From positions 1 through 64,000 of the forward strand of contig JAVZLQ010000004.1 of NCBI GenBank assembly GCA_038883655.1: a stretch of DNA of 64,000 bases. The letters run 5' to 3'. This DNA comes from Candidatus Bathyarchaeia archaeon. GTDB lineage: Archaea > Thermoproteota > Bathyarchaeia > Bathyarchaeales > Bathycorpusculaceae. This document shows positions 54,935 to 64,000 of the stretch, piece after piece (position 1 is the first letter of the stretch; the number at the start of each line of letters is the position of its first letter). A program made the translations under genes and the position numbers. The notes under the pieces are model-generated. The model did no database searches and had not been told where the DNA came from. It saw nothing but the letters and a program-made list of their open reading frames with translations.

Positions 54935-55870
54935 ATGGAGAAACTAAAATTTGCGTTTTATTGGGCTGCAAGTTGCGGCGGCTGCGAAATCGCCGTTCTC
55001 GACATAAACGAAAAAATCCTAGATGTCATAGCCAATGCCGACATAGTCTTTTGGCCAGTGGCAATGGACATAAAATGTAAAGATGTTGAGGCGATGCCAG
55101 ACAAGTACATTGACGTGTGCTTCTTTAATGGTGCAATTCGCAACAGCGAACAGGAATATATGGCGAAACTTTTAAGGCAAAAGTCAAAGGTGCTTGTGGC
55201 TTTCGGTTCTTGCGCATGTGACGGCTGCGTCATAGGGCTTGGAAACCTTTGGAATAGACAAAAAATCTTTGAAAGAGCATACTTTGAAACACCATCAACT
55301 AAAAACCTGCAGGGTGTTACTCCACAACCACGTCTAAAAGTTAAGGAAGGCGAACTTGAACTCCCAGAATTTTACGACACGGTTAAGACTCTAGCTCAAA
55401 CGGTTGATGTTGACTATTTCATTTCGGGATGCCCGCCACCAGTTCCGAGGATAATAGAAACTGTGGAGGCGATATTTAGCGGTAAACTACCGCCAAAAGG
55501 CGTGAGCTTCCTACTAAACAAGTCAATATGCGACGAATGCCCAAGAGAGAAAAAGGACAGAAAAATCACGCAAGTGAAGAGAATTTACGAGATAGAAGAC
55601 GACTTCAAAACATGCTTCCTAGACCAAGGCGTCATCTGCATGGGGCCAGCCACAAGAGGCGGATGCGGCGCCCAATGCCTAAAAGCCAACGTGCCATGCA
55701 CTGGATGTGGCGGACCAACGCCGAGAGTAACAGACCAAGGCGCAGCGATGATAAGCGCCTTCGCATCAATAGCTGCAGACCCAAGCGTAATCGAGCAAAT
55801 AGTGGACCCGATTGGAACCTTTTACAAGTATTCTCTTGCAAACTCCACCTTACGGAGGAAGGTGAGATAG
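54935..55870 (+). CDS. mvhG: [NiFe] hydrogenase small subunit, MvhG type
   Basis: SCGGC, GSCAC, GCPP, ICDEC, CMGPATRGGC, CTGC. Confidence 0.92.
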   Translation: MEKLKFAFYWAASCGGCEIAVLDINEKILDVIANADIVFWPVAMDIKCKDVEAMPDKYIDVCFFNGAIRNSEQEYMAKLLRQKSKVLVAFGSCACDGCVIGLGNLWNRQKIFERAYFETPSTKNLQGVTPQPRLKVKEGELELPEFYDTVKTLAQTVDVDYFISGCPPPVPRIIETVEAIFSGKLPPKGVSFLLNKSICDECPREKKDRKITQVKRIYEIEDDFKTCFLDQGVICMGPATRGGCGAQCLKANVPCTGCGGPTPRVTDQGAAMISAFASIAADPSVIEQIVDPIGTFYKYSLANSTLRRKVR

Positions 55871-57328
55871 ATGAAGGAAATAATCATAAACCCCATCACA
55901 AGGCTTGAGGGGCACGGAAAAATAACAATATTCCTAAATGAAGCTGGAAATGTGGAAGAAGCCTACTTCCAAGTTCCAGAACTGAGAGGCTTTGAAAGAT
56001 TCTGCGAAGGAAGAAGAGCCGAAGACCTGCCAATAATAACGACGAGGATTTGCGGTGTCTGCCCAGTCGCTCACCACATGGCAGGCGCAAAAGCCTTAGA
56101 CGCGGCGTTCAATGTTGAGCCGCCGCCAGCAGCTAAAAAGCTCCGTGAACTAATGTATTGTGGCTATTACCTCTACGACCACACATTACACTTTTACTAT
56201 CTGGGCGGTCCAGATTTTGTCGTTGGACCCGATGCTCCACCAGAAAAAAGAAACGTTATAGGCGTTATTGAGAAGGCTGGACTTGAAATAGGCAAAGAAG
56301 TCATAAAGCATAGGGCTTACGGGCAAAAGATAACGGAGATTTTGGGCGGAAAGGCGACCCATCCGGTTAACGCGTGCATACCAGGAGGGGTTTCAAAACC
56401 GCTCTCTGAAGAGGAGCGGCGCGAAATTGAGAAGATGGTTAGAAGCTGCCTTGAATTTGCAAAATTCAGCCTAAAACTCTTCGATGACATAGTGTTGAAA
56501 AACACGGACTACGTCAACCTAATAAAAAGTGAAGCCTATACGCTGCAGACCTACTATATGGGGTTGGTTGATAAAAACAACCACGTAAACTTCTACGATG
56601 GCGACGTGCGTGTGGTAGACCCAAACGGAAATGAGTTCGTTAAATTCAAGCCAAAAGAATACTTGGACGTGATTGAAGAGCATGTAGAACCATGGACATA
56701 CGTGAAGCTGCCATACCTAAAAAAGGTTGGATGGAAAGGATTCGTCGGTGGCTCCCAAAGCGGACTATACCGTGTTGGACCGCTTGGAAGGCTCAACGCT
56801 GCGGACGGCATGGCAACCCCATTAGCGCAGGCTGAATACGAGCGAATGTATAAGACGCTTGGCGGAAAGCCAGTTCACAACACTTTGGCATATCACTGGG
56901 CTAGGCTAATAGAACTTTTGTACGCGGCTGAACGCGCACTAGAACTTGTAACAGACCCAGAAATAACAAGCAAAGACATCCGAAATAAGCCAGGCAAGCC
57001 AGGCGAAGGCGTGGGCATAGTTGAAGCCGCACGTGGAACGCTTATCCACCATTACATACTTGACGAGAAGGCATTAGCCAAAAAAGTCAATCTTATCGTT
57101 GCTACAACGCATAATGCGCCGAGCATATGCATATCAATAAAGGATGCCGCGAAGGCGCTGATAAAAAATGGCAAGGTTAACGATGGCATTTTGAACATGG
57201 TTGAGATGGCTTTTAGGGCATATGACCCGTGCTTCGCGTGTGCTACGCACTTTGCAGTTGGGCAAATGCCGTTGCAGGTTGAAATTTATGATTCCGAGAG
57301 GCGGTTAATAAAGAAAATTGGAAGGTGA
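55871..57328 (+). CDS. mvhA: [NiFe] hydrogenase large subunit, MvhA type (group 3c-like)
   Basis: TRLEGHG, RGFE, RICGVC (L1), RAYDPCFACATH (L2) with cleavable C-terminal extension. Confidence 0.94.
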   Translation: MKEIIINPITRLEGHGKITIFLNEAGNVEEAYFQVPELRGFERFCEGRRAEDLPIITTRICGVCPVAHHMAGAKALDAAFNVEPPPAAKKLRELMYCGYYLYDHTLHFYYLGGPDFVVGPDAPPEKRNVIGVIEKAGLEIGKEVIKHRAYGQKITEILGGKATHPVNACIPGGVSKPLSEEERREIEKMVRSCLEFAKFSLKLFDDIVLKNTDYVNLIKSEAYTLQTYYMGLVDKNNHVNFYDGDVRVVDPNGNEFVKFKPKEYLDVIEEHVEPWTYVKLPYLKKVGWKGFVGGSQSGLYRVGPLGRLNAADGMATPLAQAEYERMYKTLGGKPVHNTLAYHWARLIELLYAAERALELVTDPEITSKDIRNKPGKPGEGVGIVEAARGTLIHHYILDEKALAKKVNLIVATTHNAPSICISIKDAAKALIKNGKVNDGILNMVEMAFRAYDPCFACATHFAVGQMPLQVEIYDSERRLIKKIGR

Positions 57329-59745
57329 TGGAAATGGAAGAGGCAAAAATTGGAGTATTCCTATCCGACTGCGGAAAACAGTTGGCAGAAATCCTAAACT
57401 TTGAAGAAATAACAAACTATCTGAAAGGCATACCACAAGTCTCCCTCGTGGCTGTTGGCAACGAATTTTGGCGAGGTCAAGGACTAAAAACATTAGTTGA
57501 AGCCGTAAAAAACGGAAAAATAAACCGCGTCGTCGTCGCAGAAAGCATACCAAAAATTGGTGAAATAAACATTGTTGAATCCCTAGAAGCAGTTGGGCTT
57601 AACCCAAACTTCGTTGAAGTTATAGACGTAAAAGACAACTGTGCATGGCCTCACCGTGACGCACCTAAAGAGGCAACGGAAAAGGCGAAGGCTATGCTTT
57701 TGGCTGCAATAGAACGTGTAAAACTTGCGGAGCCAATCGAGAAACTGGAGTTTCCAGCCGTAAAATCCATTCTCGTTATAGGCGGTGGACTGGCTGGAAT
57801 GCAGGCTGCAGAAGACCTAGCGGACATGGGTTTTGAAGTTTACTTGGTTGAGAAGGAGCCGTTTCTAGGAGGGTTAGCCGCGAAGGCTGGGCGTTTCTTC
57901 CCAACAGACGACTGTGCAATATGCATCCAATCGCCAGCTTCAGACGTGAAAACAATAACGCATACTTCGCGAAAATGCGTTTATCGTTCTGGCTTTTCAG
58001 AGATTCCAAACCTTAACGTGCTGACAAACTCTAGGGTTGTAAAGGTTGAGGGCGCGCCTGGAAACTATAAGGTGACCATTGAGAGAAAGCCGAGGTACGT
58101 TAATGAGGAAAAATGTGTTGCATGCGACTTGTGTGCCTCTGTTTGTCCAGTTGAGGTCCTAGACGAGTACAACGCGAGGTTGAAGAGTAGGAAGGCGATT
58201 TACATTAACACGCCGCTTGTTTATCCGCCAGTGTACGCTATAGACGCTAAAGCATGCAAATTCGCCGAGTGCGCCAAGTGCGTTGATGTTTGCCCCACAA
58301 AGGCAATTGAGTTGAACCAAAAAAGCAAGAAAGTTACGCTTAACGTTGGCAGCATAATCGTCGCCACTGGTTTTAAGGAGTATGACCCAAGCGTGATAAA
58401 AGAGTACCACTACGGCGAATATCCAGACGTGATAACGCAGCTTGAGCTTGCAAGGATGATTGACGCCTTCGGTCCAACAAAGGGCATGATAATTCGACCA
58501 TCAGACAAAAAGCCAGCAAAAAGAATAGTCTTCATCCAGTGTGTTGGCTCTAGGGATAGACGCTGGAACCCCTACTGTTCAAGCATATGCTGCATGATAT
58601 CGCTGAAACACGCCACACTGATTAAGTCGGCTTTTCCAGACACTGACATAACGATATGTTACATCGACATAAGAACCACTGGAAGAGAACACGAATACTA
58701 CTATGAACGCGCCCGCGAGATGGGAATAAAATTCGTGAAGGGAAGACCAACGGAAATCTTGCACGACCCAGAGGCAAACCTGCTAATAGTCGATGTTGAA
58801 GACGAACTTTTAAGAAGATTCTTGGAACTGGAAGCAGATCTTGTCGTCTTATCGCCAGCAATGGTGCCTGTTGAAGACGCAAAAGAGCTTGCGGAAATGC
58901 TTGGCTTGGAACTGGACAAGGACGGCTTCTTTAAGGAATATAACGCGAAACTTAGACCTACGGAGACGAAGAAGCGGGGCGTCTTCATCTGCGGTGGAGC
59001 GATATTCCCCAAGGATGCGCCTACAACTTCGCTTCAAGCTCACTCAGCAGCGGTTAAGGCTGCAAAATTCCTATTGAACGGCAAAATTGTCAAAGACCAG
59101 AAAACAGCCTACGTGAACGAGGATTATTGTGGAGACTGCGAATTCTGTCCAGTAACATGCCCATATGGAGCGATAACCCTAACGGAAAAGACTGACGGAC
59201 ACTTTGTCGCGCATGTGGACGATCTCTTATGCGAAGGCTGCGGCGTATGCGTTGGCACATGCCCAGTTGGAGCAATCGAACTTCGCCACTTGAAGCCAAA
59301 CCAGATTTTAGCTCAAATGAAAGCGCTGTTGTCCATTAATGGAACATCAAAACCGCTTGTTTTGGCTTTCTGCTGTTCAGAGTGCGGTCACGCCGCTGTG
59401 GATTCTTCTGGAATGGCTATGCTCAGTTATCCAGCAAACGTGCGCGTGCTGCGTGTGCCGTGCACTGGCATAGTGCAAGTACAGCATATACTGGAAGCCT
59501 TCAAGGCTGGCGCTCAAGGAGTCATGGTTGTCGGATGCAAGCAAGACGGTTGCCACTACGAGGTTGGAAGCCAGAAGGCACAGAAGAAAGTGGAGCTTGC
59601 AAAGGTTTTGCTGAAAGAGTATGGCATTGAGCCAGAACGCCTCGAAATGTTCAACATGGTTTACATAGAAGGTGACAAGTTCGCCGAAGCCGCAAGAGCC
59701 ATGACTGAAAAAGTGGAGAAGCTTGGTGCACTTCAACTAGCCTAA
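57328..59745 (+). CDS. hdrA: HdrA-MvhD fusion (intact MvhD, degenerate N-terminal cluster domain)
   Basis: GGGLAG, FPTDDC, QCVGSRD..CSSICCMISLK, ferredoxin domains, AFCCSEC...VPCTG...GCKQDGCHY. Confidence 0.92.
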   Translation: MEMEEAKIGVFLSDCGKQLAEILNFEEITNYLKGIPQVSLVAVGNEFWRGQGLKTLVEAVKNGKINRVVVAESIPKIGEINIVESLEAVGLNPNFVEVIDVKDNCAWPHRDAPKEATEKAKAMLLAAIERVKLAEPIEKLEFPAVKSILVIGGGLAGMQAAEDLADMGFEVYLVEKEPFLGGLAAKAGRFFPTDDCAICIQSPASDVKTITHTSRKCVYRSGFSEIPNLNVLTNSRVVKVEGAPGNYKVTIERKPRYVNEEKCVACDLCASVCPVEVLDEYNARLKSRKAIYINTPLVYPPVYAIDAKACKFAECAKCVDVCPTKAIELNQKSKKVTLNVGSIIVATGFKEYDPSVIKEYHYGEYPDVITQLELARMIDAFGPTKGMIIRPSDKKPAKRIVFIQCVGSRDRRWNPYCSSICCMISLKHATLIKSAFPDTDITICYIDIRTTGREHEYYYERAREMGIKFVKGRPTEILHDPEANLLIVDVEDELLRRFLELEADLVVLSPAMVPVEDAKELAEMLGLELDKDGFFKEYNAKLRPTETKKRGVFICGGAIFPKDAPTTSLQAHSAAVKAAKFLLNGKIVKDQKTAYVNEDYCGDCEFCPVTCPYGAITLTEKTDGHFVAHVDDLLCEGCGVCVGTCPVGAIELRHLKPNQILAQMKALLSINGTSKPLVLAFCCSECGHAAVDSSGMAMLSYPANVRVLRVPCTGIVQVQHILEAFKAGAQGVMVVGCKQDGCHYEVGSQKAQKKVELAKVLLKEYGIEPERLEMFNMVYIEGDKFAEAARAMTEKVEKLGALQLA

Positions 59746-59769
59746 ACCAATAAAGGAGCGTTAATCTTG

Positions 59770-60288
59770 ATGGCTGAGGAAACACAAAAGAAAGCGTTGG
59801 CAAAGAATTTTGCAAAAGAAATAACCAGCAGGCTCGGCGGAGAAACAATAACACTATGCTACCAGTGCGGGACATGCGCTTCAAGCTGTCCAGTAGCAAA
59901 AATTACTGACAAATACAATCCAAGAGAAATCATTAGGCTTGCGCTGCTCGGGTTAAGAGACGAAGTTTTGTCTGGCGGCGCCATTTGGCTTTGTTCCTCA
60001 TGCTACAACTGCCAAGAACGTTGTCCACAAAAAGTCGAAATAGCCGACGTAATTTACGCTTTGAGAAACATTGCCATCCGCGAGGGAAACATGCCAAACA
60101 TTTACGCAGAGTTTGCAGCTGGATTAATGAGCGAGGGACGCATAGTCCCTATATCAAAATTCCTCGAGAAAAAACGCGCCGAATACGGCTTACCCCAACT
60201 CAAACCAGCAGGCGTCGAAGCCGTGAAGCGTATTCTCTCAGCAACGGGATTTGACAAAATTCAGTTTAAGAAAGGTGAAGCGCAATGA
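59770..60288 (+). CDS. hdrC: Heterodisulfide reductase subunit C
   Basis: CYQCGTCASSCP, IWLCSSCYNCQERCP. Confidence 0.93.
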   Translation: MAEETQKKALAKNFAKEITSRLGGETITLCYQCGTCASSCPVAKITDKYNPREIIRLALLGLRDEVLSGGAIWLCSSCYNCQERCPQKVEIADVIYALRNIAIREGNMPNIYAEFAAGLMSEGRIVPISKFLEKKRAEYGLPQLKPAGVEAVKRILSATGFDKIQFKKGEAQ

Positions 60289-61160
60289 CGAGCTACGCCT
60301 TATTTTTAGGATGCACAATACCCGCGCGTCAGCCACACTACGAGTTGGCAGCGCGAAAAGCCCTAACAAAACTTGGAATAGAACTCGTCGACCTGGAGAA
60401 TATGACTTGCTGTGCTCCTCCACCGTTGCAATCAATAGATTTGGAAACAAGCCTTGCCATCGCCGCGTACAATATCTGCCTAGCCGAAGAAGCAGACCTA
60501 AATATAGTCACTTTATGCACTGGATGCTTCGAGTCGCTTGCCATGACTAATACCCTTCTAAAAGAGAAGAAAGAGCTTAAGGAAAGGGTTAACAAAATCC
60601 TCGCAGCTGTCGGTAAAGAGTTTAAGGGAAATAAGGAAGTGCGGCATTACCTTCAAGTTTTGATGAACGATGTTGGCTTAAATAACCTGAAAAAGAGTGT
60701 TGTAAAACCACTAAGCAAGCTGAAAGTTGCAGCCTTTTCTGGTTGTCACCTGCTTAGACCAAGCGCGCTCTTGAGGTTTGACGACCCAGAACGCCCAAAA
60801 ATCTTTGACGACCTAATCGAAGCGTTAGGCGCCAAAAGTATCTGGTACAGAAATAAGCTAAAGTGTTGTGGCGGTCTGTTGAGGGGCTACGCTGACGATG
60901 TGGCTTTAGCCATAGCCAGAGACAAAATAGTAAACGCTTTTAAGGCTGGCGCTGACTGCATATCAACGCTTTGTCCATTCTGCTTCTTAACGCTTGATCT
61001 TGGTCAGATGCTCATAAAAACCACGTACAAGGAAGAATATAGCATGCCAGTTATTCACTACGCTGAGCTTTTGAGCATAAGCCTAGGAGTAGACCCAAAA
61101 GAACTTGCGCTCGATTTTCACAAGGTAAAATTGGACCCAGTACTAAGCAAGATCGGCTAA
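60285..61160 (+). CDS. hdrB: Heterodisulfide reductase subunit B
   Basis: FLGC, CCAPP, CTGC, GCHLLRP, CCGG, CPFC. Confidence 0.93.
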   Translation: MTSYALFLGCTIPARQPHYELAARKALTKLGIELVDLENMTCCAPPPLQSIDLETSLAIAAYNICLAEEADLNIVTLCTGCFESLAMTNTLLKEKKELKERVNKILAAVGKEFKGNKEVRHYLQVLMNDVGLNNLKKSVVKPLSKLKVAAFSGCHLLRPSALLRFDDPERPKIFDDLIEALGAKSIWYRNKLKCCGGLLRGYADDVALAIARDKIVNAFKAGADCISTLCPFCFLTLDLGQMLIKTTYKEEYSMPVIHYAELLSISLGVDPKELALDFHKVKLDPVLSKIG

Positions 61161-61254: not shown

Positions 61255-61455
61255 ATGAAGGTAACAGCCCTAAAAGAACACAAGTGCTTCTGTTGTGGAG
61301 CAACCATAAAACGTGGCGAGGAATGCTTCGCTTTTTTCGTGAATCCATCTGACCCGAGCAAAAGTGAGTTTGATGTTATCTACACTTGTATAAAATGTAG
61401 TGATGAGGAGAAGTGTAAAATTAGGATAAAGCGTCGAGAGGCAAGCGAATCGTAA
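61255..61455 (+). CDS. Small Cys-rich zinc-finger-like protein
   Basis: HKCFCCG..IKRGE...YTCIKC. Confidence 0.6.
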   Translation: MKVTALKEHKCFCCGATIKRGEECFAFFVNPSDPSKSEFDVIYTCIKCSDEEKCKIRIKRREASES

Positions 61456-61459
61456 ACAG

Positions 61460-61930
61460 TCAGTTTCCTTTTGGAATTTCTATTTCAAGTGCCTCGTTAT
61501 TGTTGCATTTCGTAACCATGCTTTCAATTTTTAGGTGATCAACTGGAAGAGTTATCTTTCGGCATTCGTCAACACAAACATCGTTTCCATCGCCCTTCTT
61601 GTAGCAAACCTTGTTGCAAATTTCTATGCCATCCACATCAGTGTGAACAGTTATTTTTTGTTCTCGGCACTTGCACTGTATTAGAATCCTAATATAATTA
61701 TCGTCCTCAAACACGTCTATCAGGGGTTCTTCAAGTTGTGGTAATGGAATTAAATGCCTAACTGGGCTTGACTCTATTTGCTCGCTGATTATGTACTTCT
61801 TGTATAGAAGTTTCTCCATAGGCTCCACAATGATATCGCTTCTTTCCTCCGCTTCACTTTCGATAAGTTTCTTTACCAAAACCTTGCAGAAAACGTCTAT
61901 GTTTCGGAGGGCTTCCTCAAAACTGCTCAT
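61460..61930 (-). CDS. Divergent Cys-rich Hsp20/alpha-crystallin-like protein
   Basis: EPLIDVFEDDNYIRIL...RKITLP...NNEALEIEIPK. Confidence 0.6.
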   Translation of the reverse strand: MSSFEEALRNIDVFCKVLVKKLIESEAEERSDIIVEPMEKLLYKKYIISEQIESSPVRHLIPLPQLEEPLIDVFEDDNYIRILIQCKCREQKITVHTDVDGIEICNKVCYKKGDGNDVCVDECRKITLPVDHLKIESMVTKCNNNEALEIEIPKGN

Positions 61931-62019: not shown

Positions 62020-63105
62020 CTATGCTTTCTTCTTCGCAGCCAATGGAATAGACCGTACATGCTTTACCACGCGGACAATATCTTCAACCTCTTTTTTAGG
62101 CTGTTCCAAGGCTCTGTTTATGGCTATGTCAGCAATAGTCGCTCCCTTATCCGCGATTTTGGTTAGGCATGAAATGTAAGCCCTCAAGTATGGAATTTCT
62201 GGGGCTTCGCGCATCAGCCTTTCAGCTTCTCCTTCAAGAACTTCCTTCATTTCTAGTACGCCGTTAGCCACGCGAAGGTCTCTAGTGAAAATGCAGTCCA
62301 ATGCCTTCTGGAATATTGTTTGGGCTAACTCGCCCATGTGGAAAATCCTCTGTACAACATCTGCTGGGATTCTGTTGCGGTAAACTTTAAGCTCAACGAT
62401 TTTTTTGGCTATGTCTTCAGAATAGTCCGCAATTAACTCCAAATACTGAAGTATCAACCGCGTGGCTGGTATGAAGAGCACGTCAGTCGAACCTATTTGC
62501 TCAGCAATTTCAGGTTTAGCCTGCGCAGAGAGTAACAAGCGGACAGCAAGATAATAAATGGTGTCAGCTTCATCCTCGCGGCTCACAGCCTCCATAGCCA
62601 AATCTTCGTTATTTTCTTGGAATGCCTGCATCGCCTCCGAAAGTATTGTTGACGCAATTAGTGCTAGGCGTCTAACGAGCATGTCGAGTTTGAATTTCGA
62701 TGGGTCTACTGAACACTGCAATAGTATGTTTTTTGGCGTTTCTTCGAGTATTCCGAGACCGATTAGTTTTGGAACTATCCGCCTAATTTCGTCGACGTGT
62801 TCCTTGCTTATTCTTGTTGATGACACGACCCTCAAAACGTCTCTTCCAAGAATGTAGCTTCCAACGATTATCCTTTCGAGCATGCCTTTCTCGTCGCAAG
62901 CATCTGCGTTGATGATGTATTCTTCTGCTTCCTCTTTTAGGGCGAAGTGGCTTGGCATAATCTTTAATGTGCCATCTCTTTCTTGCATTAGGAAAACTAG
63001 GTCTCCAGGGTTTATGTTGTTCTGTTTTGTCCATTCGCTTGGAAGCGAAACAGTCAGTGTTGAATAACCAACTTTTTGAACTTTTCTACTTTCCAAAAGC
63101 TTCAC
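62020..63105 (-). CDS. AbrB-PhoU family regulator (phosphate uptake regulator-like)
   Basis: RKVQKVGYSTLTVSLPSEW (AbrB/SpoVT), then PhoU repeats (REDEADTIY, LELIADYSEDI). Confidence 0.9.
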   Translation of the reverse strand: MKLLESRKVQKVGYSTLTVSLPSEWTKQNNINPGDLVFLMQERDGTLKIMPSHFALKEEAEEYIINADACDEKGMLERIIVGSYILGRDVLRVVSSTRISKEHVDEIRRIVPKLIGLGILEETPKNILLQCSVDPSKFKLDMLVRRLALIASTILSEAMQAFQENNEDLAMEAVSREDEADTIYYLAVRLLLSAQAKPEIAEQIGSTDVLFIPATRLILQYLELIADYSEDIAKKIVELKVYRNRIPADVVQRIFHMGELAQTIFQKALDCIFTRDLRVANGVLEMKEVLEGEAERLMREAPEIPYLRAYISCLTKIADKGATIADIAINRALEQPKKEVEDIVRVVKHVRSIPLAAKKKA

Positions 63106-63111
63106 CGTCTA

Positions 63112-63465
63112 TATGGTATTTACTATGCACATCAATTTAACGCATAGCCAATATTTTTCCGTTTCTATCATAACAAGACTTAATTAGAATTCCGCAGTTC
63201 TATTTGAATAAAGGAGAGATTTTAATTTGGAGAAACCTATTAGAAGTTTGGTGAAGGCGATTTCTTGGAGAATTGTGGCAACTTTGACGACAATCATTTT
63301 AGTTGTGATATTCAGTAAGGGCGATTGGAGTTTAGGCGGAATTGTTGGTATTTCTGAACTAATTTTGAAAACTGTTGTTTACTACTTTCATGAGCGTGTT
63401 TGGAACTTGTTGAGTTTTGGCAGGGAGTCGAAGCATTAGCTCTTTTTATGTATGGTATTTACTAT
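63112..63465. promoter_or_regulatory. Two identical 15-bp near-palindromic sites TATGGTATTTACTAT (63112-63126, 63451-63465)
   Basis: Exact direct repeat; ATGGTA-TT-TACTAT is a one-mismatch dyad; both copies are intergenic. Confidence 0.6.
63227..63439 (+). CDS. DUF2061-family small membrane protein
   Basis: RSLVKAISWR...KTVVYYFHERVW signature. Confidence 0.85.
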   Translation: MEKPIRSLVKAISWRIVATLTTIILVVIFSKGDWSLGGIVGISELILKTVVYYFHERVWNLLSFGRESKH

Positions 63466-63543
63466 TCGTTAAAATATATGCATCAAGTATATATTTTGCA
63501 TTTATGTTATATATGCTTCAGATGTAAAGGAGGGTGATGGAAA

Positions 63544-64000
63544 ATGTCTGAATGGAAAACCGTAAGTATAAGACAAGAACTAATAAAACAGATTGAAGAA
63601 GCAATCAAAACAGGGCGCTACAGAAGCATATCAGAATTCGTCTCAGAAGCCATCCGCCTACGCCTCGAAGACCTAATGCGCGCAGAAGGCATACCAGCAG
63701 AAAAACGCAAGGAATTGCTCCTAACACCTGAACTTCTCCTATACACGCCAAAGCACACGTGGGCACAAGTAACACCTGAAGGGAACATTCGCGTGGGTGT
63801 TTCAGACTACGCCCAGAGGCACTTGAAGGGTATAGCAAACATAATGACCGAACCAGTTGGAAAAGAAATAAGCCACATGGAGCCTTTCGGCGTTGCTGAA
63901 ACATGGATGTTCATGTTCGACCTTTACGCGCCAGTAAGCGGCAAAATAGTTAAAGTGAATGAGAAGCTAAAGAACGAGCCAAACCTTGTTAACGAAGACC
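63544..64000 (+). CDS. Ribbon-helix-helix domain fused to a GcvH-like domain lacking the lipoyl lysine (3' truncated)
   Basis: Manual translation MSEWKTVSIRQELIKQIEEAIKTGRYRSISEFVSEAIRLRL...YTPKHTWA...IRVGVSDYAQ...FGVAETWMFMFDLYAPVSGKIVKVNEKLKNEPNLVNED. Confidence 0.85.
   Translation, partial: MSEWKTVSIRQELIKQIEEAIKTGRYRSISEFVSEAIRLRLEDLMRAEGIPAEKRKELLLTPELLLYTPKHTWAQVTPEGNIRVGVSDYAQRHLKGIANIMTEPVGKEISHMEPFGVAETWMFMFDLYAPVSGKIVKVNEKLKNEPNLVNED

Follow-up and report, generated by a model that had tools for sequence, protein, structure and literature searches.

A ribbon-helix-helix-like head joined to a lysine-less GcvH fold: a candidate regulator beside hydrogenase-linked redox operons of Bathyarchaeia

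What is left for the fold of a glycine-cleavage H-protein (GcvH) to do once it has lost the lysine that carries the lipoyl group and has acquired a small head resembling a DNA-binding domain? The question is raised by the last gene in a stretch of 64,000 nucleotides, hereafter the window, taken from the very start of contig C4 (JAVZLQ010000004.1) in the genome of a Candidatus Bathyarchaeia archaeon (GCA_038883655.1; 1.42 Mb, 19 contigs, 93% complete). The gene begins at 63544 on the plus strand and its open reading frame (ORF) is still open at the window edge. A sequence-only reading of the window had drawn attention to this truncated frame, and described it as a ribbon-helix-helix (RHH) protein fused to a GcvH domain that cannot be lipoylated and acting as a transcription factor. 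Followed along contig C4 the frame ends at 64134 (whole gene C4 63544-64134), and thus the window holds the first 152 codons (63544..64000) of a 196-residue protein that is 100% identical to protein cluster P0001. Both the frame running off the window and the two-part architecture were borne out, and we discuss below why a regulator of neighbouring redox genes appears to us an attractive, still tentative, explanation.

The two domains lie in one chain in the order RHH (residues 6-42), linker, GcvH (residues 65-188). The GcvH-fold domain (63736..64000 on the plus strand, its final 36 residues lying outside the window) is recognized by the Pfam model GCV_H with 108.6 bits (E = 2.5e-31), and the RHH-like head (63559..63669, plus strand) by the model RHH_1 with 20.6 bits against a cut-off of 20.5 (E = 4.2e-4) when the full protein is searched. 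Reading the rest of the gene, as had been suggested, revealed no second GcvH domain and no lipoylated one, since the whole 196-residue chain stops 8 residues past the Pfam match. The protein contains no Cys. Among the NCBIfam models it passes that of the GcvH subfamily NF002270 (122.6 bits, cut-off 117), fails the gcvH equivalog TIGR00527 (102.9 bits, cut-off 115.85), and also fails both “not_gcvH” and “GcvH_rel_desulf”.

The C-terminal domain has kept the H-protein fold and lost the lipoyl-lysine. In an AlphaFold model based on a 50-row alignment (mean predicted local distance difference test score, pLDDT, 83.8) the block means reach 85-98 over residues 71-180, hairpin included. Foldseek places the GcvH part on the Escherichia coli H-protein 3ab9 with an E-value of 4.5e-13, a template modelling (TM) score of 0.92 on the target and a root-mean-square deviation (rmsd) of 1.0, and each of its 22 matches with E ≤ 1e-3 is an H-protein or GcvH-L. 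When aligned by phmmer with four solved H-proteins (3ift, 3hgb, 1onl, and 3a8i; 30-40% identity), the ES[VT]K[AS] hairpin of the latter falls on E119-T-W-M122-F123 (63898..63912, plus strand). The hairpin Glu and the downstream D-L-Y-A-P-V-S-G segment are retained, and the position of the lipoyl-lysine is occupied by Met122, preceded by Trp121; the Met codon lies at 63907-63909, just where the sequence-only reading had put it. The domain has an isoelectric point of about 6.0 against 4.75 for the canonical GcvH, a difference that is uninformative on ligase recognition because the values of relatives range from 4.7 to 8.9.

It had been argued that a single-base error was unlikely to account for the missing lysine, and this is confirmed by the relatives. 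ETWMF is present in all 120 of the 120 close homologues listed (85-100% identical, 196-202 residues), none of which keeps the Lys, and in 14 of 17 fusion-type genes from related loci, the three exceptions being upstream paralogues with ETWWF or ESWWF. In and around the motif the codons vary synonymously: Thr is written with four codons, Phe with both of its codons, and the Leu and Val codons also differ. Because the motif is kept while surrounding codons vary in this way, ETWMF is under purifying selection, and a pseudogene, a sequencing error or a recent decay can be ruled out. The fusion protein is thus almost certainly not a lipoyl carrier. Metal sensing through Met and Trp, as in CusF-like proteins, was also considered for the hairpin and rejected; across the wider family the Trp alone is kept and the Met residues differ, and no Cys is present.

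The identity of the head is less clear-cut. Searched on its own, the N-terminal 57 residues raise the RHH_1 score to 24.8 bits, and twelve diverse family members share the pattern [KR]-x-[VI]-x-[VI]-x-x-E-L with two helices behind it. When their heads were made into a profile and compared with the PDB, the best RHH match was the RHH domain of Helicobacter pylori NikR (E = 0.013, positions 6-41), with ParD and CopG-family antitoxins matching more weakly; the single best match of all is a coiled-coil peptide (VASP), which we take as compositional. The head modelled alone (pLDDT 83) has helices at residues 9-22 and 29-48 (29-47 in the full-length model) after an extended N-terminus. In a Foldseek search with the isolated head, 20 of the 28 displayed rows, ranks 1-22 included, are RHH proteins (ParD, NikR, CopA, CopG, and MazE of Bacillus subtilis), the top match being 8c24_F with TM scores of 0.64/0.75 and an rmsd of 1.3 over 40 columns. 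In the models the N-terminus thus forms two helices, and almost all of the nearest solved folds are of the RHH kind, though at non-significant E-values. Taking profile and model comparisons together, we consider the RHH assignment probable and the head a probable RHH DNA binder. A homodimer prediction with two full-length copies scored 0.24 against a mark of 0.42; made without controls, it bears neither way. An antitoxin of a toxin-antitoxin pair was ruled out, no toxin-like gene being found next to the fusion.

Could this protein nevertheless serve as the H-protein of the cell? A canonical GcvH of 136 residues with an intact VESVKAVSD hairpin is encoded elsewhere in the same genome (C1:105669-106079), and therefore the fusion protein is a diverged paralogue and not the glycine-cleavage H-protein. 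Genes for GcvT are found on contig C3 and for GcvPA/PB on C2, so that none of gcvT, gcvPA/PB or canonical gcvH lies near the fusion. The two genes of the BPL_LplA_LipB family are located on C5 and at C4:81377, the latter 17 kb downstream of the fusion; of the neighbours that had been proposed for inspection, a ligase-family gene is thus found on the same contig at some distance, but the gcv genes are not. The canonical gcvH (region C1:104307-106079) does not itself adjoin gcvT or gcvP. Immediately after it, and in the same orientation, comes a 448-residue ORF that resembles, by eye, a pyridine-nucleotide-disulfide oxidoreductase and could be the dihydrolipoyl-reoxidizing partner of the canonical GcvH.

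The fusion belongs to a wider clade whose members lack the Lys. A database clustered at 90% identity yielded 1352 matches at E ≤ 1e-3; the best 120 of these 1352 all come from sources named Bathyarchaeia or Bathyarchaeota and are mostly called “glycine cleavage system protein GcvH” (NCBI and JGI), sometimes “ribbon-helix-helix protein, CopG family”. An exhaustive search of 50%-identity representatives returned 17 clusters at E ≤ 1e-30. In 149 aligned rows (the query, the canonical GcvH and the listed matches under 300 residues) the Lys at the lipoyl position is kept in 106 and absent in 43. Where the Lys is absent and the N-terminus is extended by about 60 residues, the rows have hairpins such as ETWMF, ETWLS, ESWWF, ETWWF, ETVARWPL, and ETPGWW, so that Trp and not Met is the shared element; the Trp at the hairpin tip (Trp121) is conserved over the wider lysine-less clade. 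A quick tree, built by maximum likelihood from the GcvH domains of 142 of these rows (36 without Lys), gathers every clear fusion in an all-lysine-less group of 25 rows, with a support of 87 against a mark of 95 in the Shimodaira-Hasegawa-like approximate likelihood ratio test (SH-aLRT), a grouping partly aided by the lysine-less trait itself because the hairpin columns were kept. The remaining 11 rows without Lys lie dispersed between canonical H-proteins.

In terms of distribution, 22 of 300 other genomes of the class have a full-length match among the 150 rows listed, beyond which lie 417 weaker rows. All 22 belong to the order of the window itself (86 genomes): 10 of 48 genomes in its own family, 8 of 16 in family f2 (all of genus g24), 2 of 12 in f5, and 2 of 6 in f4. 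In the other orders of the class the fusion is found in none of 214 genomes among the matches listed. A species-representative collection gave 19 loci covering the head, all titled Bathyarchaeota or Bathyarchaeia, and the ESM Atlas agrees. Within the genomes searched, the fusion was found in a single order of Bathyarchaeia.

More distant relatives carry the gene in duplicate. Adjacent pairs of lysine-less fusion paralogues are found at L024:3079-4319, L025:5730-6995, and L026:9346-10609, with ETWWF or ESWWF in the upstream copy and ETWMF in the downstream copy, and P0121 (417 residues) joins two lysine-less RHH-GcvH units in a single chain. A protein working as a dimer would fit these pairs and the double-unit chain. 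Two further architectures deserve mention. P0132, a library representative of 1391 residues, contains three tandem lysine-less GCV_H domains together with FAD_binding_4, FAD-oxidase_C, 4Fe-4S dicluster, and two CCG domains in a GlcD/HdrD-like arrangement; in at least one lineage the GcvH fold is physically coupled to CCG-type enzymes. P0139 (185 residues) combines a MoCF_biosynth (molybdopterin-binding) N-terminal part with a lysine-less GcvH domain, and may be another fusion or a chimera of assembly or gene calling.

What, then, surrounds the gene? The most constant neighbour is a divergently oriented gene on the minus strand (62020..63105) for a 361-residue protein in which Pfam finds an AbrB/MazE-type DNA-binding domain and a PhoU domain. 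It is present in 17 of the 17 loci with sequence on that side, and the two proteins may act as a regulatory pair. The sequence-only reading did not consider it as a neighbour of the fusion. It is presumably the other DNA-binding fusion which that reading had mentioned in the window. Between the two regulator genes a DUF2061 small membrane protein of 70 residues is encoded (63227..63439, plus strand), as in some of the other loci only. On the far side of the AbrB-PhoU gene, before hdrB, are two ORFs with no Pfam match, at 61255-61455 (plus strand; 66 residues, Cys-rich) and 61460-61930 (minus strand; 156 residues); ORFs with N-termini that look similar by eye occur near the fusion in genus g24 (128 residues in L090 and L091, 70 in L092).

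Redox genes are found on both sides. The sequence-only reading had noted that hdrB lies 2.4 kb away, which is correct: the hdrB-like gene at 60285-61160 closes an upstream set, mvhG-mvhA-hdrA(806 residues)-hdrC-hdrB, at 54935-61160 of the window. The more relevant neighbour is a second hdr/mvh operon outside the window, a run of eight genes at C4:64235-74010 that begins 100 nt past the stop codon of the fusion and encodes, in order, a GltD-like Fe-S flavoprotein (575 residues), an MvhD-like protein (247 residues), HdrA (1009 residues), MvhD, HdrC, HdrB (CCG), MvhG, and MvhA. A GltD-associated HdrA with mvhADG has been noted in Bathyarchaeota (PMC12054007).

This arrangement is common among the relatives and varies by genus. 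The next downstream gene is GltD-like in 13 of the 15 loci with downstream sequence (twelve of about 570-587 residues or cut by the contig end, and one 453-residue form in L024), and MvhD-like and HdrA genes come after it wherever the contig continues. A 247-residue MvhD-like gene is located within about 4 kb on the same contig in 8 of the 14 fusion genomes common to both genome samples. In L023 a TauE permease gene stands ahead of the GltD-like position, and the fusion in L019 has TauE behind it, with NuoE/F/G-like genes after that. Three more g24 loci share the order abrB-phoU, divergent fusion, tauE, and a gene of 124-127 residues, and two of the three continue with nuoE/F/G-like genes and the small, then large, subunit of a [NiFe] hydrogenase. 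No hdr genes are present in the downstream operon of these two loci, the ones that reach that far. The shared downstream theme is a cytoplasmic hydrogenase-linked redox operon rather than Hdr as such, and the fusion protein is 72-80% identical between genera whose downstream operons differ. The TauE/SafE-family permeases (a sulfite/organosulfonate exporter family), directly after the fusion at L019:989-1957, L023:7053-8018, L090:6061-7038, and L092:4131-5111, are a possible hint at a sulfur-compound signal.

The intergenic sequence contains candidate promoter elements and operators. A 12-nt box, TGGTATTTACTA, lies at 63453..63464 on the plus strand, 80-91 nt upstream of the ATG, and is a candidate promoter element or operator. 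A second copy on the same strand (63114..63125) stands 9-20 nt upstream of the called AbrB-PhoU start, and these two are the only exact copies in the 1.42-Mb genome. The box is the core of an exact 15-nt direct repeat, TATGGTATTTACTAT, at 63112-63126 and 63451-63465. This repeat flanks the DUF2061 gene and its core is unique to the two places, as might be expected if DUF2061 was inserted here and a promoter or operator element was copied in the process. Related loci have the box as T[AG]GTATTTACTA, or as ..ATATTTACCA in genus g24, about 80-100 nt before the ATG, and where the spacer between fusion and AbrB-PhoU is short one box serves for both sides. Between box and start codon are three TATAT-containing elements, ATATATGCATCA, GTATATATT, and TTATATATGCTTCA (63474..63520, plus strand), a candidate TATA box with flanking operator half-sites, conserved in close loci (74-90% protein identity). 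A Shine-Dalgarno-like TAAAGGAG follows at 63525..63532 on the plus strand, 12-19 nt before the ATG, and a AAAGGAGG-like form is found in nearly all aligned close loci. After the stop codon, close loci have a C-run and then five or more T, resembling an archaeal terminator, and a conserved TATA-like GGCTTAATATAT stands ahead of the GltD-like gene, separate from the elements of the fusion. Judged by these promoter-like and terminator-like elements, the fusion gene would be its own transcription unit.

A further candidate operator, the tandem TRYGYTA-N4-TRYGYTA with a period of 11 nt, stands after the fusion and ahead of the GltD-like gene in 6 of 16 loci, and a search of both strands of 458 kb of locus sequence gave no other copy. 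One TRYGYTA half-site by itself precedes the fusion ATG by about 41 nt, in 9 of 16 loci. When the whole genome was scanned for the 12-nt box and for the tandem half-site, no convincing regulon member appeared beyond this locus. Two runs labelled metatranscriptomic, though flagged “probably DNA”, show a summed depth of 199-672 over the bins of the fusion against 1.6-104 in the other 28 bins, but their pieces are 5-8% divergent from the window and hence come from relatives. Depth of this kind is unfit for ranking genes. In a raw-read RNA run a single read pair (2 reads) fell on the 12.1-kb stretch, on the fusion gene, too thin to use.

We favour the following interpretation, to which we give slightly less than an even chance. 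The protein would be a one-component RHH regulator, NikR-like in layout, whose N-terminal head dimerizes and binds DNA and whose disarmed GcvH fold, with Met122 and the Trp at its tip, would act as a signal-sensing, partner-binding or oligomerizing module. As targets, the promoter of the fusion gene itself and the neighbouring cytoplasmic [NiFe]-hydrogenase redox operon would be the likeliest, and the AbrB-PhoU protein encoded divergently may share in the control. The Trp kept at the hairpin tip hints at a residue that may insert into the pocket of a partner. We read the protein as a regulator because a small head is joined to a folded C-terminal domain, the gene appears to have a promoter and terminator of its own, repeats stand at its own and the next promoter, and the redox operons behind it differ by genus. 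That it regulates the adjacent redox operon is, in our estimate, a near-even proposition leaning to the doubtful side.

Several observations weigh against this interpretation. The RHH_1 model reaches E ≤ 0.01 in only 4 of the 12 diverse heads, the query itself clearing the cut-off by 0.1 bit; neither monomer model, full-length or head alone, forms the N-terminal strand; and the Foldseek search with the isolated head gave no significant match (best E = 0.39). The 12-nt box sits where the TATA box of a leaderless AbrB-PhoU mRNA would be expected, and may be a promoter element or a site for AbrB-PhoU rather than for the fusion. The tandem occurs twice in the genome itself, downstream of the fusion and at C1:235691, about the number expected by chance from a rough estimate of base composition; 10 of the 16 loci are without it, and its weight rests on conservation among related loci that are not independent. 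Neither is the GltD/Hdr link obligate, as 6 of the 14 fusion genomes, all of g24, have no 247-residue MvhD-like gene, and at least one genome (G072) has that gene yet gave no fusion match.

The alternative that survives best, although we regard it as unlikely, is that the protein does not bind DNA at all. As an accessory or decoy its lysine-less, Trp-tipped hairpin would dock into an enzyme that normally takes a lipoyl-protein or a similar arm, such as the adjacent Hdr/GltD/hydrogenase complex, a lipoate ligase or the P and T proteins of the glycine cleavage system, while the N-terminal helices merely dimerize or tether. Such a role would agree with the tight and conserved placement ahead of redox operons, with the marginal RHH score, and with a Trp121 that is kept at the tip across the lysine-less clade while adjacent residues vary; P0132, in which an FAD oxidase and HdrD-like Fe-S/CCG module share a chain with three lysine-less GCV_H domains, also counts in its favour. 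It does not sit well with the promoter-like elements and terminator-like T-run of the gene and the absence of translational coupling to the operon, nor with the RHH-like pattern and closest folds of the N-terminus. The downstream operon changes from genus to genus while the protein stays similar, which suits a regulator better than a fixed subunit.

A second alternative keeps the regulator but changes its subject. Here the regulator would act on glycine cleavage or lipoate metabolism and, in line with the sequence-only reading, its GcvH mimic would signal whether the P, T or L protein or lipoate ligase is available; the position beside hdr/mvh would be incidental. The similarity to H-proteins is strong enough to pass NF002270, though not TIGR00527, and the genome contains a full glycine cleavage system and ligase-family genes as possible partners. 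The placement of these genes speaks the other way: gcvT, gcvPA/PB and canonical gcvH reside on other contigs and the nearest BPL_LplA_LipB gene is well removed, whereas the conserved neighbours are hydrogenase/redox operons and AbrB-PhoU. The candidate operators do not lead to them either, the exact 12-nt box being confined to this locus and the tandem to the site downstream of the fusion and that on C1. We consider this alternative distinctly improbable.

Returning to the one-component regulator, its boldest version holds that the Trp-tipped mimic plugs into the lipoyl-arm site of an electron-bifurcating Hdr/GltD/hydrogenase-type complex, or of some other enzyme, and that the state of the complex is read directly as transcription through the RHH head; we give this specific mechanism a slim chance. 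The last alternative is an acyl or lipoyl carrier that still works but takes its modification at a different residue, in other words an ordinary H-protein with an N-terminal extension. In its favour, many members bear that name, and in a few relatives a Lys stands two positions further on (ETWMFKF in P0124 and the L026 gene). It is hardly credible, with that later Lys unconserved, the canonical Lys absent from all 120 close homologues, a canonical GcvH in the same genome, and the hairpin-tip lysine as the site that known ligases modify (bioRxiv 10.64898/2026.10.01.755906).

These results have consequences for annotation. Hundreds of Bathyarchaeia records misleadingly name the fusion “glycine cleavage system protein GcvH”, and counting it as an H-protein can spoil reconstructions of glycine cleavage and of the reductive glycine pathway. 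We know of no regulators for the Hdr/Mvh/GltD-type redox operons of Bathyarchaeia, which are central to the proposed energy metabolism of these uncultured archaea, and the fusion is a candidate for that part. If the regulator interpretation is true, the lipoyl-carrier fold joins the sensor modules known from RHH regulators. If the carrier-mimic mechanism is true as well, HdrB/CCG-type enzymes of Bathyarchaeia would handle lipoyl-proteins, as sHdr does LbpA. The disulfide substrate of Hdr in non-methanogenic archaea has, to our knowledge, long been unknown; the mimic would offer a hint at it and a handle on the substrates of Hdr complexes.

How does the fusion compare with known systems? With GcvH (PF01597) it shares the fold and a clear homology, as the Pfam score and the superposition testify, and it differs in the Met that replaces the lipoyl-lysine, the Trp before it, the additional RHH-like head of 60 residues, and the lack of a gcvT or gcvP neighbour. 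GcvH-L of Staphylococcus and Streptococcus pairs with SirTM/macrodomain. Like the fusion it is a diverged GcvH paralogue with a role outside glycine cleavage, and its structure 5a35 matches the fold less well (E = 6.2e-6); unlike the fusion it has no RHH head and is described as a lipoic acid carrier (PMC12440151). LbpA is the GcvH-like lipoate-binding protein of sulfur-oxidizing sHdr systems, encoded beside heterodisulfide-reductase-type genes (PMC6067878; bioRxiv 10.64898/2026.10.01.755906), and it requires a lipoylated Lys and has characteristic conserved Cys (bioRxiv 10.64898/2026.10.01.755906). The sulfur-oxidation cluster of LbpA comes with ligase and LipS genes dedicated to it. The sequence-only reading had invoked LbpA, and both are indeed GcvH-family proteins adjoining Hdr-type genes. 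The analogy is nevertheless weak. The fusion has neither the Lys at the site nor any Cys, LbpA has no DNA-binding head, and the local hdrABC genes are linked to mvhD/G/A as in the methanogen-type HdrABC-Mvh, with no sulfur-oxidation sHdr genes or cluster among them, although no search was aimed at LipS1/S2. A literature search that left subscription journals mostly uncovered gave no paper describing the fusion of RHH and GcvH, or a GcvH without its lysine as a regulatory module.

On the side of the head, CopG, Arc, ParD, and CopA are comparable in the Pfam RHH_1 match, with ParD, CopA, and CopG providing the closest solved folds, but the fusion has no adjacent toxin gene, and a folded GcvH domain of 130 residues takes the place of a toxin-binding tail. 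NikR is a parallel in layout only, joining an RHH head and a C-terminal domain that does not bind DNA in one small polypeptide. NikR models match only the head of the fusion, far below their cut-offs, and the C-terminal domains are unlike: the fusion has the barrel-sandwich fold of GcvH instead of the ACT-like nickel-binding domain of NikR, and it lacks conserved metal-binding residues, with no Cys and with varying Met residues near the hairpin. The protein would be an RHH one-component regulator with a C-terminal module that is new to that kind.

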